From Promethearchaeati archaeon SRVP18_Atabeyarchaeia-1 (GTDB lineage Archaea; Asgardarchaeota; Atabeyarchaeia; Atabeyarchaeales; Atabeyarchaeaceae), in contig CP147779.1 of the NCBI GenBank assembly GCA_037308085.1, positions 448,001-512,000 of the forward strand: a stretch of DNA of 64,000 nucleotides, in the 5' to 3' direction. The notes under the pieces are model-generated. The model did not search any database. It saw nothing but the letters and a program-made list of their open reading frames with translations, and was not told the DNA's origin. Shown here piece after piece: positions 1,482-9,918 of the stretch. Numbering within the stretch: position 1 is the first letter of the stretch; every line of letters starts with the position of its first letter. The position numbers and the translations under genes were made by a program.

Positions 1482-2392
1482 AGGCCTTCAGGTCGTCCTA
1501 AAACTCTTCGCGGCTTCCTCTAACCTCTCTACGATGTGACTCATAGTCGTCTCTGTAGGAAGGCTGTTGACAAGTGTTGGCGAGGGAGTTCAAATGAACT
1601 CGCTTGTGCCTTTCTTAGGAGGGGATCATGACGATCGTTGACGACAAGAGGAAGTATGTTCTGGTCAAAACGAAGAGTCTTATCCGTCGTCTGCGCCAAC
1701 AAGACTGTGGGGCTCTGCAAGGAGTATACAGGCACGTTGATGACTTGGTTGAGTGGAATACCTTTCGAGACTGGGCGTATAGAGGCTGCTTCCGGATGCC
1801 TCTCAACGTGTTCGCAAGGTTGAAGAAGACATATGAGATCAAGGACGTGCCGCGAGTGGTCACAGAGACTCAATGGTACGCAGAGACACGCAAGAGAGCA
1901 GCAAGAATAATGCACGAACGCCACCCCCATAAGGAGTGGCTATCGCGAGCAGCGAAGGCTGGCGGTGAAGCTGTAAAAGCCAAGTACGGGATCAGGTATC
2001 TGACAAAACTCTCTGGATCTGCCATACATTCATCAGCCAGATACCGATACAAGGATGGATATGGAATAGAATACCGTAGCCGCCTGGAACTGCGGGTTGC
2101 GGATTTGCTGCGCAAACATGGATACAAATTCGATTATGAACCGGAGATAGATGGATACATCCCTGACTTCCTAATCAACCACACAATAATCGAGGTTAGC
2201 GGATACTTTCGCGACCACGATTATCTTTCAAGACTCCAGATCAAACTTGCAGACCTAACCACTAAGGGTTGGGATATCATCGTTGTATGTGAACCGCGAA
2301 ACAAAGCTGCTCTCCAGCAGGCGCTCGTAGGAATACGAGTCAAGGCAATTATGACAACGGATGAGTTCGGACGATGGCTGTAGGTCTGCGAA
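1482..2392 (+). mobile_element. 16S BHB intron 1 (911 nt, about E. coli 1057) carrying an endonuclease ORF
   Basis: Central helix TGCA/TGCG, bulges TG^A and AA^G; splicing gives GTGCATG|GCCGTCGTCAG. Confidence 0.93.
1628..2383 (+). CDS. Intron-encoded PD-(D/E)xK endonuclease (T7 endonuclease I/DUF559-like)
   Basis: YRSRLE...YEP...YIPDF...IIEVSG motif; stop codon lies in the intron's BHB stem. Confidence 0.75.
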   Translation: MTIVDDKRKYVLVKTKSLIRRLRQQDCGALQGVYRHVDDLVEWNTFRDWAYRGCFRMPLNVFARLKKTYEIKDVPRVVTETQWYAETRKRAARIMHERHPHKEWLSRAAKAGGEAVKAKYGIRYLTKLSGSAIHSSARYRYKDGYGIEYRSRLELRVADLLRKHGYKFDYEPEIDGYIPDFLINHTIIEVSGYFRDHDYLSRLQIKLADLTTKGWDIIVVCEPRNKAALQQALVGIRVKAIMTTDEFGRWL

Positions 2393-2849: not shown

Positions 2850-2880
<31 letters not shown>

Positions 2881-3047
2881 AGACTCCGTAGGGGATGCTT
2901 GTGATTGTGATGGGGTGGCATCCGCCTTTTGCTTTGTATGCAACGACTTTGTTGCGGCTTGAGGTGTTCTCGTAGGTTCCGTGTTGCGCGTCTGATGTGT
3001 TTGGGATGCGTTTCCGAGGTTTCGTTTGTCTCCTTGGAGTCCGGTAA
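2881..3047 (+). other. 16S BHB intron 3 (167 nt, helix 45, about E. coli 1513)
   Basis: Helix GCCG/CGGT, stem GACTCC/GGAGTC, bulges TA^A and AA^G; splicing gives GCCGTA|GGGGAACC. Confidence 0.92.
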
Positions 3048-3292
3048 GGGGAACCTGCGGCTGGATCACCTCCTATGAATCCCCACCCGTTAGGGTGGGG
3101 TTCTTCCGCCGCGATTGTTGCCGAGGGGTTGGCTTACATGATTGTTGTGGGGTTTCGAGCCCGCCTACCTGCTTCTCACTGCTCATTTTGTTTTCCTGGT
3201 TATCCGATTAGCCATGTTATTGTCTAGCATTTGCTTTCTCTTTTCTGGATGGCTTCGGATTCGGAAAGCTGGGCGTGTTACTGTAGTTGGTG

Positions 3293-4024
3293 ACCTTTAA
3301 TGTCATCATCCATGACTAGATGATTGTGAGCTACGAACTCCTTGAAGGGTGTGGGCTTTCTGGTTCAATTTGATAAGATTCTGTTGAGGACCGATCAGTC
3401 GGCGGAGGCAACTCCATCCATCTGCTATCTTGCAGGTACGTTCAGAGATGGTTGCATATCAACCCAGTGGCAGATCAAGATCAAGCAGAAATCGAGGCAG
3501 TATCTTCTCAATAAGATCATACCAATACTAAACCAAGAATCCAATCTCCATTTGACAGAGAGAGCCGTCTATTTGCAGGCTGACGCAAATAGGCGCTTTT
3601 ATGTCGCGTTCAAGAGAAAGAAGGCATGGGGGCAGCTCAGGAAAACTTTCAGCATCCCCCCAGACAGTGTAAGTTAGGGAACGCCGCCGTTCGTCAAAAA
3701 ACTAGACAAAGCCCTGTTGCGTTTCTATATACAGGGCTTCTTTGACGCTGAAGGTGGAGTGCCCCGTAACCCGATGAGCTCCAAATTGTACATCTCATTC
3801 ACCCAAAGAAACCGTGAATCCCTAGAGTTTCTAAGAAACAAGCTGTATTCCGAGTGGAATATTGTCTCGGGCAGGCTGAGGATTTCTGATAACAGGTCCC
3901 ACTGCTGGAGGTTCACGATTGCTGGGCTAGGCTCGATCAAACGATTCATGACAGAGATTGGAACGGAACATCCATCTAAGGAGAGAAGATTCACTATCAT
4001 TTCGAATCTGCTTAAAGGCTGGTA
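3293..4024 (+). mobile_element. LAGLIDADG-bearing BHB-type intron in a duplicated 16S helix 45 copy
   Basis: CCTTTAA(3294-3300)/TTAAAGG(4012-4018) stem, TTGG/CTGG central helix, bulges TG^A and TA^G; followed by a copy of the 16S last exon. Confidence 0.6.
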
Positions 4025-4025
4025 G
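3342..4025 (+). pseudogene. Double-motif LAGLIDADG homing endonuclease with one in-frame TAG (3675-3677)
   Basis: Motifs YLAGTFRDG and YIQGFFDAEG are in the same frame; the two ORF-track pieces are separated by a single TAG. Confidence 0.8.
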
Positions 4026-6482: not shown

Positions 6483-7358
6483 AGGGACGCCCCCGCGAGG
6501 TTTCTCGCGGTCGTCATCAACCTAGTTTCATGTTGAGTAGGCACTTCTGTGTTTGGAGGCGCCGTGGCGCCGGTGTATTGTCTCTTTCTCTTGCTGACCG
6601 CAATACTTATAATGGGTTCACCGCACTATCTTTGAATTGCGGTAGAGAGATGGCTTTGCAGCTGTTACTCTATCGCCCTCATGATGAACTTGAGATGCAA
6701 CTCGGGAGGATTGTACAATTGGGCCTCTCGGGTGAAGGGCAAAGTGGGGATTCACATGGTTACCATCCTCACGATAATTGCCGTGCATAGGCTCCATCTG
6801 CTAGATCGTTCGTACGAGGAGAACCCAGGTATATCCAACACCAAACTGGACCAAGGTTATGAGTAAGGTCTGACATGCCTACGCCGCCTGGAGGATGGCT
6901 AGGCTTGGGCGCCGAGGAAGGCCGTGGCAAGCTGCGATAAGCCTCGGGTAGGCGCACGCTGCCTGCGATCCGAGGATTGCCGAATAGGACTTCCTGACTA
7001 AGGTCAATAACCTTAGTCGCTCCCGTCAGGGAGTGGGAACTCTCCGAAGGGAAGCATCTCAGTAGGAGAAGGAAAAGAAACTAACAAGGACTCCCTTATT
7101 AGCGGCGAGCGAAAGGGGAAAAGGGCAAACCGAATCCTGCAGGGAAACCTGCTGGAGATGTGGGGTTACAGGACCTAGCTTCCACCTCTTCGAGGAAGTT
7201 GAAAGACATGGAAATGTCTGCCTTAGAGGGTGATAGCCCCGTAAGCGCAACTCGAAAAGTGCAGGGCTGGGGATCCTGAGTACCGTGGACTGCTTACTCC
7301 GCGGGAATTTGGGAGCTACCGACTTCCAACCCTAAGTACGTCCCAAGTCCGATAGCGC

Positions 7359-7392
<34 letters not shown>

Positions 7393-8803
7393 GGAAGGGG
7401 GGTGAAAAGGGCCTGAAACCAGGCGGTTATAGACGAGCGCGGCCTGAAAGGGTAGAGTCTTCCCGAAGGAACCCGGGGTGACCCGGTAGTACGAGGGAAG
7501 AGGACCAGGGTTGCGCTATCCGTCTTGAAACACGGGCCGGGGAGTTCACGCTTGTGGCGAGCCTAAGGAGGTAAAGCTCCGTAAGCGAAGGGAAACCGAC
7601 ATGCCCGCAACCGGCTTAACTGTCGGCGAGGGGCGGGGTCTGAAAGGGCCTGGAGTCACATGCGTGGAACCCGAAGCTGGGCGATCTAGCCCTGGCTAGG
7701 ATGAAGCCAGACGAAAGTCTGGTGGAGGTCCGCAAGGGTGCTGACGTGCAACTCGCTCCCCTGAGCTGGGGCTAGGGGCAAAATACTAATCTAGCCCAGG
7801 GATAGCTGGTTCCCCCCGAAGTAGGTCGTAGCCTAGCCTGGCTGGAGGTTGCCGACGGGGTAGAGCACCGACTGGGGAGCAAGGGATCGAAAGATCCCAC
7901 TTTCCTATCGAACTCCGAACCTATCGGCGCCGTAGAAGGCCAGAGACGGGTGCCTAGGGATAAGCTCTTGGACCGAGAGGAGAACAATCCAGACCGGGGT
8001 TAAGGCCCCAAAGTGCCGGCTAAGTGTCAAACCGAAGGGCGTCCGCAGCCTCAGACAGCAGGAGAGTAGGCTTAGAAGCAGCCATCTCTCAAAAAGTGCG
8101 TAACAGCTTACCTGCCGAGGTTGTGGGCCCCGAAAATGGACGGGACTAAAGCCGGCCGCCGATACCCCGGGGCACGGTGTAGCACCGTGATCCGGTAGGG
8201 GGGCGTTGCGGTTGGGTCGAAGCTGAGCCGTGAGGTTCAGTGGACCGACTGGAAGTGACGATCCCGGCAGTAGTAACAACAAAGCCAGGTGAGACTCCTG
8301 GCCGCCGAAGGGGCTCGGGTTCCTCGGCAACGCGTCGTCAGCCGAGGGTTAGTCGATCCTAAGGCTAAGCTTAACTCGCTTTAGCCGAAAGGGAAACTGG
8401 TTTATATTCCAGTACCATGGAGGTACGATTGCGGCGACGCTAAGCTTGGTTCCTGACGCTTCCGGGTAGGTTGAGCAGGGTCTTCGCCCTGTTTAAGTGT
8501 ATAAGCCTAGGGAGGGCCGTAAAGGCGAGAACTAGGTGAAAGCACGAATAGCTGCCCGTTTAGGGCGGTTCAGCCGAGCTCAGGAGCCCGTGAAAAGGGA
8601 GCCAAGAAGGATCCTCCATGACCGTACCTAGAACCGACACAGGTGCCCCTAGGTGAGAAGCCTCAGGCGTGTCGGAATAAACTCGGGCAAGGGAATTCGG
8701 CAAATTAGCCCCGTAACTTAGGGATAAGGGGTGCCTGGAACCTTTAGCGTAAAAACTTGGGGTTCTAGGTCGCAGTGACTAGGGAGGCCTGACTGTTTAA
8801 TAA

Positions 8804-8836
8804 ACGGACGAAGGCACATGCCCTTCTCCGATTAAG
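8804..8836 (+). other. 23S BHB intron (33 nt, about E. coli 1784)
   Basis: Helix TAAT/ATTA, bulges AA^A and AG^A; splicing gives TTTAATAA|AAACATAG. Confidence 0.9.
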
Positions 8837-8964
8837 AAACATAGCTTCCCGCAAGCGCGTAAGCGTGTGTACGGGAGGTGAATCCTGGCCAGTGCAGGTA
8901 CGTTAAGCCTGGTTTCAACCGGGTGAAGCGCCTGTAAACGCCGGGAGTAACTATAACTCTCTTA

Positions 8965-9013
8965 ACAGGCTTTGGGGAGACAGTTCATGTGCTCTCCCCC
9001 CGGCCTGGGGGAA
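8965..9013 (+). other. 23S BHB intron (49 nt, about E. coli 1927)
   Basis: Helix CTCT/GGGG, stem CAGGC/GCCTG; splicing gives CTCTTA|AGGTAGC. Confidence 0.9.
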
Positions 9014-9579
9014 AGGTAGCCAAATGCCTTGTCGGACAAGTACCGACGTGCATGAATGGACCAACGAGGTCTCTACTGTCCCTGCCCGGGGGCCGGTGAA
9101 CCTACGTAACCTGGCGAACGGTCCAGGAACCCCCAAGGGGAAAAGAAGACCCCGTGGAGCTTTACTGCAGCTTGGTGCTGGGGTGCGGTTGCGGTTGCAG
9201 AGCGTAGTCGGGAGCCGTTAATACCAGTCCTTTAGGGGGCTGGCTAGGCGCCAATGCCACACCGACCTTCCATGACTGTATCCCTAACCGAGGGAAACCC
9301 CGAGACAACGCTAGGTGGGCAGTTCGGCTGGGGCGGCACGCCCTTGAAAAGGTATCAAGGGTGCCCAAAGGTCGGCTCAACCGAGACAGAAACTCGGCGT
9401 AGAGGGTAAGGCCAAAAGCCGGCCTGACTGAATCCTGAAAAGCAAAGGATGCAGAGGCGAAAGCCGGGCCTAACGATCCTTCATGTCCCTCTCGGTGAGG
9501 GCTGGAGGTGACAGAAAAGTTACCCCGGGGATAACAGAGTCGTCGCGGGCAAGAGCCCATATCGACCCCGCGGCTTGCT

Positions 9580-9611
9580 AGTTAGGAAGATTCGTTCTTC
9601 CTGACCGGGAG
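9580..9611 (+). other. 23S BHB intron (32 nt, about E. coli 2496)
   Basis: Helix CTTG/CGGG, stem GTTAGG/CCTGAC; splicing gives GCTTGCT|TCCTCGATGTCGG. Confidence 0.88.
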
Positions 9612-9670
9612 TCCTCGATGTCGGCTCTTCCCATCCTGGAGGTGCAGCAGCCTCCAAGGGTAGGGCTGTA

Positions 9671-9820
<150 letters not shown>

Positions 9821-9884
9821 ACAGGTCGGGTTTTATCTCTTGGGGGTGCAGGGTCGCCTGAAGGTAAGGTACCCTCAGTACGAG

Positions 9885-9918
9885 AGGGCTGGAGTGCTTT
9901 GTGCACCTGCTCCGTAAG
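9885..9918 (+). other. 23S BHB intron in the sarcin-ricin loop (34 nt)
   Basis: Helix TACG/CGTA, both bulges AG^A; splicing gives AGTACGAG|AGGAAC. Confidence 0.92.

Follow-up and report, generated by a model that had tools for sequence, protein, structure and literature searches.

A probable mobile intron in 16S rRNA helix 34 of an Asgard archaeon, carrying a putative homing endonuclease of the PD-(D/E)xK, T7-endonuclease-I-like type

In reviews and in a survey of the Thermoproteales, introns of archaeal rRNA genes are tied to LAGLIDADG enzymes (PMC4496867, PMC3943268), and the first-pass annotation of the locus described here, which called the described open reading frames (ORFs) of these introns typically LAGLIDADG, agrees with this literature. 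Homing enzymes with a restriction fold are known only from group I introns of bacteria and phages, namely I-Ssp6803I and I-Bth0305I (PMC3943268, PMC3239194). In CPR bacteria, the genes found in rRNA inserts are of the LAGLIDADG and GIY-YIG types (PMC11270868). No description of an archaeal bulge-helix-bulge (BHB) rRNA intron with a restriction-fold nuclease was found in the open literature.

In this study, we analyzed a 64,000-nt stretch of an Asgard archaeal genome (hereafter the window) with an interrupted 16S rRNA gene. We consider it probable, at about 0.7, that the interruption is a mobile archaeal BHB intron in helix 34 carrying a PD-(D/E)xK homing endonuclease related to T7 endonuclease I. 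The 16S exons, the intron and all elements within it described below lie on the forward strand.

The match to archaeal SSU rRNA (Rfam RF01959) spans positions 464–2889 of the window and is broken at model position ~997 by ~916 unaligned nucleotides. This 16S rRNA gene, the only one in the genome, is split by an insert of 911 nt, whose bounds are set at 1482–2392 because the 16S rRNA gene of a second genome of the same family (G002, closed, 2.8 Mb; locus L008) is uninterrupted there; they are exactly those of the first-pass annotation. The 16S rRNA gene of G002 has 1498 nt and is 99% identical to the window across 282 nt of exon preceding the junction, which reads GGTGGTGCATG/GCCGTCGTCAG (slash at the junction), or, in another span of the intronless site, GAGAGGTGGTGCATG/GCCGTCGTCAGTTCGTG; the uninterrupted stretch across it is GGTGGTGCATGGCCGTCGTCAG. 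At the junction, the spliced window sequence equals both the 16S rRNA of G002 and the Rfam consensus, i.e. removal of the insert restores the host RNA. The upstream exon (464–1481, Rfam RF01959) ends with ...GGUGGUGCAUG, corresponding to E. coli G1057 (rrsB numbering), and the next exon (2393–2741) begins with GCCGUCGUCAG. The insertion site is 1057/1058, which we take to be located in helix 34. The first-pass annotation did not recognize it as common, and it is absent from the list of 13 16S intron loci compiled for archaea by Jay and Inskeep 2015 (PMC4496867).

The rRNA genes of the window hold further inserts. A 33-nt insert (2742–2774) separates UGCACAC from ACCGCCCGUC and is probably an ORF-less mini-intron; archaeal introns are known from its position, E. 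coli locus 1391. Another insert of ~170 nt (~2880–3050) is located near the 3′ end of the 16S rRNA gene, which places the true end of the gene near 3075 and not at 2889. Behind the 16S rRNA gene, two LAGLIDADG-like frames (3342–3677 and 3717–4025) look like one broken gene. In the 23S rRNA gene (6867–10208, Rfam), an insert of ~32 nt (~9581–9612) between GCUUGCUA and CCUCGAUGUCGG is located near E. coli position 2497, where contig L022 has an ORF-less intron; this is 14 nt from the site 2483/2484 of the nuclease-bearing introns of L022 and L025 described below.

The ends of the 911-nt insert pair to form a BHB motif. Its 5′ half (1471–1491) comprises the outer helix (1471–1475), the central helix (1476–1479), the bulge (1480–1482) and the inner helix (1483–1491), while the 3′ half (2378–2398) comprises the inner helix (2378–2386), the central helix (2387–2390), the bulge (2391–2393) and the outer helix (2394–2398). 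In the central helix, U1476–A1479 pair with U2387–G2390 (UGCA/UGCG, four pairs), flanked by the three-nucleotide bulges UGA (U1480-G1481-A1482) and AAG (A2391-A2392-G2393); the outer helix has five pairs, and in the inner helix eight of nine positions pair between G1483–G1491 and C2378–C2386. Splice sites are predicted after the second base of each bulge, i.e. after G1481 and after A2392. In five homologous introns, the inner helix covaries, with compensatory changes such as GGCCU/AGGUC, GGAUG/CAUCC and GGUAG/CUACC, while the bulges keep their register. The BHB pairing, the gap in the Rfam alignment and the empty allele of G002 all define the intron at 1482–2392. A group I or group II intron was ruled out, as no Rfam family other than SSU rRNA matched at E ≤ 1 within 1440–2440.

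A circular form of a related intron was found in an environmental sample. Contig L015 (IMG sample 3300019250, 1026 nt) has identical ends of 116 nt and closes to a circle of 910 nt, derived from either RNA or DNA, in which the last base of the intron is joined to the first, exactly at the predicted cut sites; the encoded protein is 82% identical to that of the window. From the same sample, contig L014 runs from exon 1 into the intron and across the same circle junction. An archaeal rRNA intron would be expected to take this form after excision. The first 43 nt of L014 have no 16S match, end just before GAAACUUACC, and may represent the end of a further intron located close to E. coli position 978. 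With no ribozyme match at E ≤ 1, a covarying inner helix and a relative assembled as a circle, the initial assignment as a BHB intron is borne out. The host genome has two genes for EndA-type splicing endonucleases and also encodes the RtcB ligase. The pre-rRNA would fold into the BHB motif and be cut by EndA after G1481 and A2392, and RtcB would join the exons and circularize the intron.

Homologous introns of 872–879 nt occupy exactly this position in Hermodarchaeota YT_063 (L001/L013) and Ca. Borrarchaeum weybense (L005/L012) as well as in one SRA contig (L002) and two metagenome contigs (L016, L017), giving one intron type at one site in three Asgard lineages. The records of Borrarchaeum (G307) and Hermodarchaeota (G109) belong, like the genome of the window, to the phylum Asgardarchaeota. 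Among 400 genomes of the phylum, only three, from three families, have a gene of this type, always at 1057/1058, a count limited by draft genomes that are missing rRNA genes. Across the Asgard lineages, the first ~55 nt of the intron are conserved above the level of the coding region in an alignment of seven introns; in the window, this non-coding start (1482–1540) contains CAGGTCGTC ... AAAACTCTTCGCGGCTT ... CCTCTC. Covariation-supported structure was not found in it among the seven introns aligned.

The intron carries an ORF of 251 codons (P0001, 1628–2383), whose stop codon TAG (2381–2383) is located inside the inner helix of the BHB motif. Its frame is intact and contains the motifs YRSRLE, YEPE, PDF and IIEVSG, as read in the first-pass annotation. 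Seven close homologues share 65–85% identity with P0001, and reading frames are intact in all seven to eight homologues. With dN/dS values of 0.09–0.13 (Nei-Gojobori, against three homologues, with synonymous sites near saturation), P0001 is, as judged from sequence comparison, under strong purifying selection. Upstream of the ORF, a Shine-Dalgarno-like stretch AGGAGGGGATC (1617–1627), complementary to the 16S rRNA 3′ end GGAUCACCUCC, has a GGAGG core ending 5 nt before the ATG; in the intron alignment, it is absent from the homologues of Hermodarchaeota and Borrarchaeum. The 251-aa protein would be translated from the excised intron via this GGAGG located 5 nt before the AUG.

In the Hermodarchaeota and Borrarchaeum forms (L001, L002, L005, L016, L017), the ORF has no stop codon before the 3′ splice site. 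In the precursor, the frame extends 15 codons into exon 2 (...AVASSWRELSS), and in the circle it stops past the junction. The C-terminus of the circle product of L005 (...FLTTGKR) is exactly that of the database protein P0004, which indicates that the gene of P0004 was called on a contig with the circle junction.

The N-terminal half of P0001 (aa 1–140, 1628–2047) is helical and basic with a pI of 10.3, as expected from the earlier description of a basic region ahead of the nuclease. Residues 12–78 weakly resemble Cro/C1-type HTH domains, at Z scores of 5–6.4 that are within the noise range, and a look-up of the N-terminal half in the ESM Atlas gave no usable match.

The C-terminal half (aa 141–251, 2048–2380) was assigned as a PD-(D/E)xK nuclease domain by profile, predicted fold and invariant residues. 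The only Pfam match of P0001 is Phage_endo_I (PF05367) with E = 0.0026 and 17.8 bits, below the cut-off of 29.1 bits. LAGLIDADG domains gave no Pfam match at E ≤ 10 in P0001 and the fold differs as well, in line with the original statement that the ORF is non-LAGLIDADG. An exhaustive search yielded 46 relatives at E ≤ 1e-3, all of which, except for the two closest, share only aa 90–235. Searched against PDB sequences, the family profile matched T7 endonuclease I (E = 4e-10), Bax1 (E = 2e-8) and the catalytic domain of I-Bth0305I (E = 1e-4); the first of these matches supports homology with T7 endonuclease I despite the low Pfam score. In the AlphaFold model, residues 140–251 have a pLDDT above 94, and the best match was I-Bth0305I (PDB 3r3p) both with Foldseek (E = 1.3e-4) and with VIA-align (Z = 9.2); further fold neighbours include Vsr, TnsA, Can2 and restriction enzymes, and most of the top matches are PD-(D/E)xK proteins. 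Since sequence profile and structure prediction agree, a nuclease fold is supported, and the structure prediction proposed at the outset as a check thus recovered it. The assignment of this half to the PD-(D/E)xK fold, with T7 endonuclease I, Bax1 and Vsr-like enzymes as its relatives, is therefore supported, including the resemblance to T7 endonuclease I originally read from motifs.

Within this domain, E154 (2087–2089), D180 of the PDF motif (2165–2167), F181 and E189 (2192–2194) are invariant in an alignment of 50 sequences. The lysine of the ExK motif is missing: Ser191 (2198–2200) occupies the position of Lys67 of T7 endonuclease I, which bears out the Ser noted there in the first-pass annotation, and the position is Ser, Ala or Cys across the clade, while more distant relatives vary there. 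In T7 endonuclease I, the mutation K67A abolishes activity, and this mutant is the non-cleaving form in PDB 2pfj. Activity of P0001 would thus depend on a substitute residue, for which K206 (2243–2245) in the next helix, retained in at least 90% of the 50 family members, is a candidate suggested by its conservation. An invariant histidine was not found in the nuclease domain; H197 varies between H, Q, K, D and P among close homologues.

The loss of the ExK lysine gives room to a doubtful, but of all alternatives the least improbable, reading, namely that the nuclease is dead or only nicks and that the protein is kept for binding of DNA or pre-rRNA, as an aid in splicing or folding (maturase-like) or for protection of the intron, which would persist by vertical descent with occasional loss. 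Ser, Ala or Cys is found at the lysine position throughout the clade, RAP-domain RNA-binding proteins are among the fold neighbours (mitoribosomes, Z = 9.2; FASTKD4, Z = 6.7), and strong purifying selection is compatible with any function. However, none of the three acidic residues of the metal site varies among 50 diverse members, K206 is conserved nearby, filled (window) and empty (G002) alleles of the site occur within one family, and relatives at several rRNA intron sites in other archaea form the pattern of a mobile endonuclease.

These relatives were found by the search for homologues in rRNA introns that had been suggested for this locus, and are located at 16S 1079/1080, 23S 2483/2484 and 23S near 2291. 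Five of the nine nearest distant relatives looked up are located inside archaeal rRNA genes. P0012 (L020) is encoded in a 790-nt 16S intron at E. coli 1079/1080 with a perfect central helix of 4 bp, the bulges UGA and AAA and 11 of 12 pairs in the inner helix. P0013 (L022) and P0017 (L025) are encoded in 23S introns after E. coli C2483 (2483/2484), for both of which the central helix has three pairs plus A·G, the bulges are ACA and AAC and the inner helix covaries. For P0014 (L023) and P0016 (L027), both in the 23S rRNA gene near E. coli 2291 with approximate junctions, a canonical BHB motif could not be drawn. Outside rRNA genes, P0019 and P0020 are encoded by free-standing genes, and the gene of P0022 directly adjoins a tRNA.

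Some of these contigs hold further introns. In L020, a 40-nt BHB mini-intron (2365–2404; central helix GGUG/CACU, seven of seven inner pairs) is located at 16S E. coli 1052/1053, five bases from the site of the window. It precedes the P0012 intron by 27 bases and brings the number of distinct intron sites in helix 34 to three (1052/1053, 1057/1058 and 1079/1080). In L025, the P0017 intron appears to be preceded, at a distance of 6 nt, by an ORF-less insert of ~120–150 nt (~2255–2373, junctions approximate); further upstream, this contig has a LAGLIDADG intron.

Free-standing genes with the nuclease domain occur in 116 of 400 Asgard genomes, and the genome of the window itself holds five copies of the domain. 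None of 27 other Asgard loci, taken from the best profile hits, adjoins rRNA, and among the loci fetched, only the P0001 clade is intron-borne within the phylum. Most Asgard relatives are thus free-standing and away from rRNA, and an intron location is therefore not inherent to the domain. One free-standing paralogue in the genome of the window (347 aa; L004 1480–2523, reverse strand; G000:C1 ~992640–993680) has four tandem HTH repeats followed by the nuclease domain, which likewise lacks the lysine (ILEVTG), and three weaker paralogues are located at ~102707, ~1242562 (with an in-frame TAA) and ~33166.

The free-standing paralogues, common in the phylum and present in the same genome, could also speak for a structure-specific nuclease, similar to T7 endonuclease I or Bax1, that was lodged in the intron by chance and acts on branched or damaged DNA and not on the rDNA site; the best sequence relatives of solved structure are indeed T7 endonuclease I, which resolves junctions, and Bax1, which acts in repair. 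We regard this as improbable, as a conserved basic N-terminal domain is particular to the intron-borne clade, which is always located at one rDNA site and whose nearest outside relatives are likewise intron-borne. A frame that is spurious or in decay within an old intron, for which only the missing lysine could be cited, can be dismissed as far as sequence data go, since the frames are intact in all homologues at a dN/dS of ~0.1 with saturated synonymous sites and the fold is predicted with confidence.

P0001 is most likely, as far as can be told from sequence, a homing endonuclease of a class undescribed for archaeal introns. We infer a function in homing because filled and empty alleles coexist within one family, three Asgard lineages share the site, and related proteins are encoded in introns elsewhere in rRNA genes. 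Besides, the genome of the window holds a single copy of the intron and no uninterrupted copy of the target is left in it, a self-protection that was counted in favour of homing. As a homing endonuclease, P0001 would bind the uninterrupted rDNA site with its basic N-terminal domain and cut it with its C-terminal domain by means of metal ions held by E154, D180 and E189, where K206, located one helix further on, would take the place of the absent ExK lysine. The cut gene would then acquire the intron through repair templated by a copy that has it. Going further, and with only a slight preference, we lean towards regarding P0001 and its relatives as an unrecognized archaeal homing endonuclease family that is T7-endonuclease-I-like, has a relocated catalytic lysine, resides in BHB introns of Asgard and other archaea at no fewer than four conserved positions of the rRNA genes, and derives from common free-standing HTH-nuclease genes.

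If a PD-(D/E)xK homing enzyme in a BHB intron is confirmed, the rule that homing of archaeal introns relies on LAGLIDADG enzymes only would end (PMC4496867, PMC3943268), and a second, unrelated nuclease class in the BHB niche would show that homing enzymes were recruited more than once, as in group I introns. Compact enzymes aimed at universally conserved rRNA sequences are possible tools, and a clade that lacks the ExK lysine yet is strongly selected represents a natural test of active-site rewiring in the restriction fold. Helix 34 is located at the decoding centre and the tetracycline site. Site 1057/1058 is located under the widely used primer region 1053–1070, and thus introns at this position can cause amplicon surveys to miss these archaea and can disrupt the assembly of 16S sequences.

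Among the known systems, I-Ssp6803I, a PD-(D/E)xK enzyme of the group I intron in the Synechocystis tRNA-fMet gene, shows that a restriction fold can serve intron homing (PMC3943268). It is bacterial, borne by a group I intron and a compact tetramer, unlike the setting of P0001, and since it is missing from the sequence and fold matches of P0001, no specific kinship is shown. T7 endonuclease I and Bax1 are the best sequence relatives, and the equivalents of E20, D55 and E65 of T7 endonuclease I are conserved in the P0001 family. In contrast to both, P0001 has Ser, Ala or Cys at the position of Lys67 as well as an extra basic N-terminal region, and it is located in an intron, a context that is not that of a resolvase or repair factor. 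I-Bth0305I (EDxHD, PDB 3r3p) is the best structural match of the nuclease domain, and it likewise combines an N-terminal DNA-binding region containing an HTH with a C-terminal restriction-fold nuclease without the classic ExK lysine; by sequence, the domain of P0001 is closer to T7 endonuclease I than to I-Bth0305I. The Vsr-type histidine serving as general base in the EDxHD motif of I-Bth0305I has no conserved counterpart in P0001, and the carrier differs as well, being a group I ribozyme in phage recA for I-Bth0305I (PMC3239194) and a BHB intron for P0001. With the LAGLIDADG-bearing archaeal BHB introns (those of I-DmoI, I-PorI, I-ApeI and I-PogI and of the 16S rRNA genes of Thermoproteales), the intron described here shares a length of 0.7–1 kb, a location in a highly conserved rRNA stretch, a single ORF and a patchy spread among relatives, and, like them, it would be spliced by proteins and excised as a circle. 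It differs from them in its Asgard host and in its ORF, which has neither the LAGLIDADG motif nor the LAGLIDADG fold and instead encodes a predicted PD-(D/E)xK domain.
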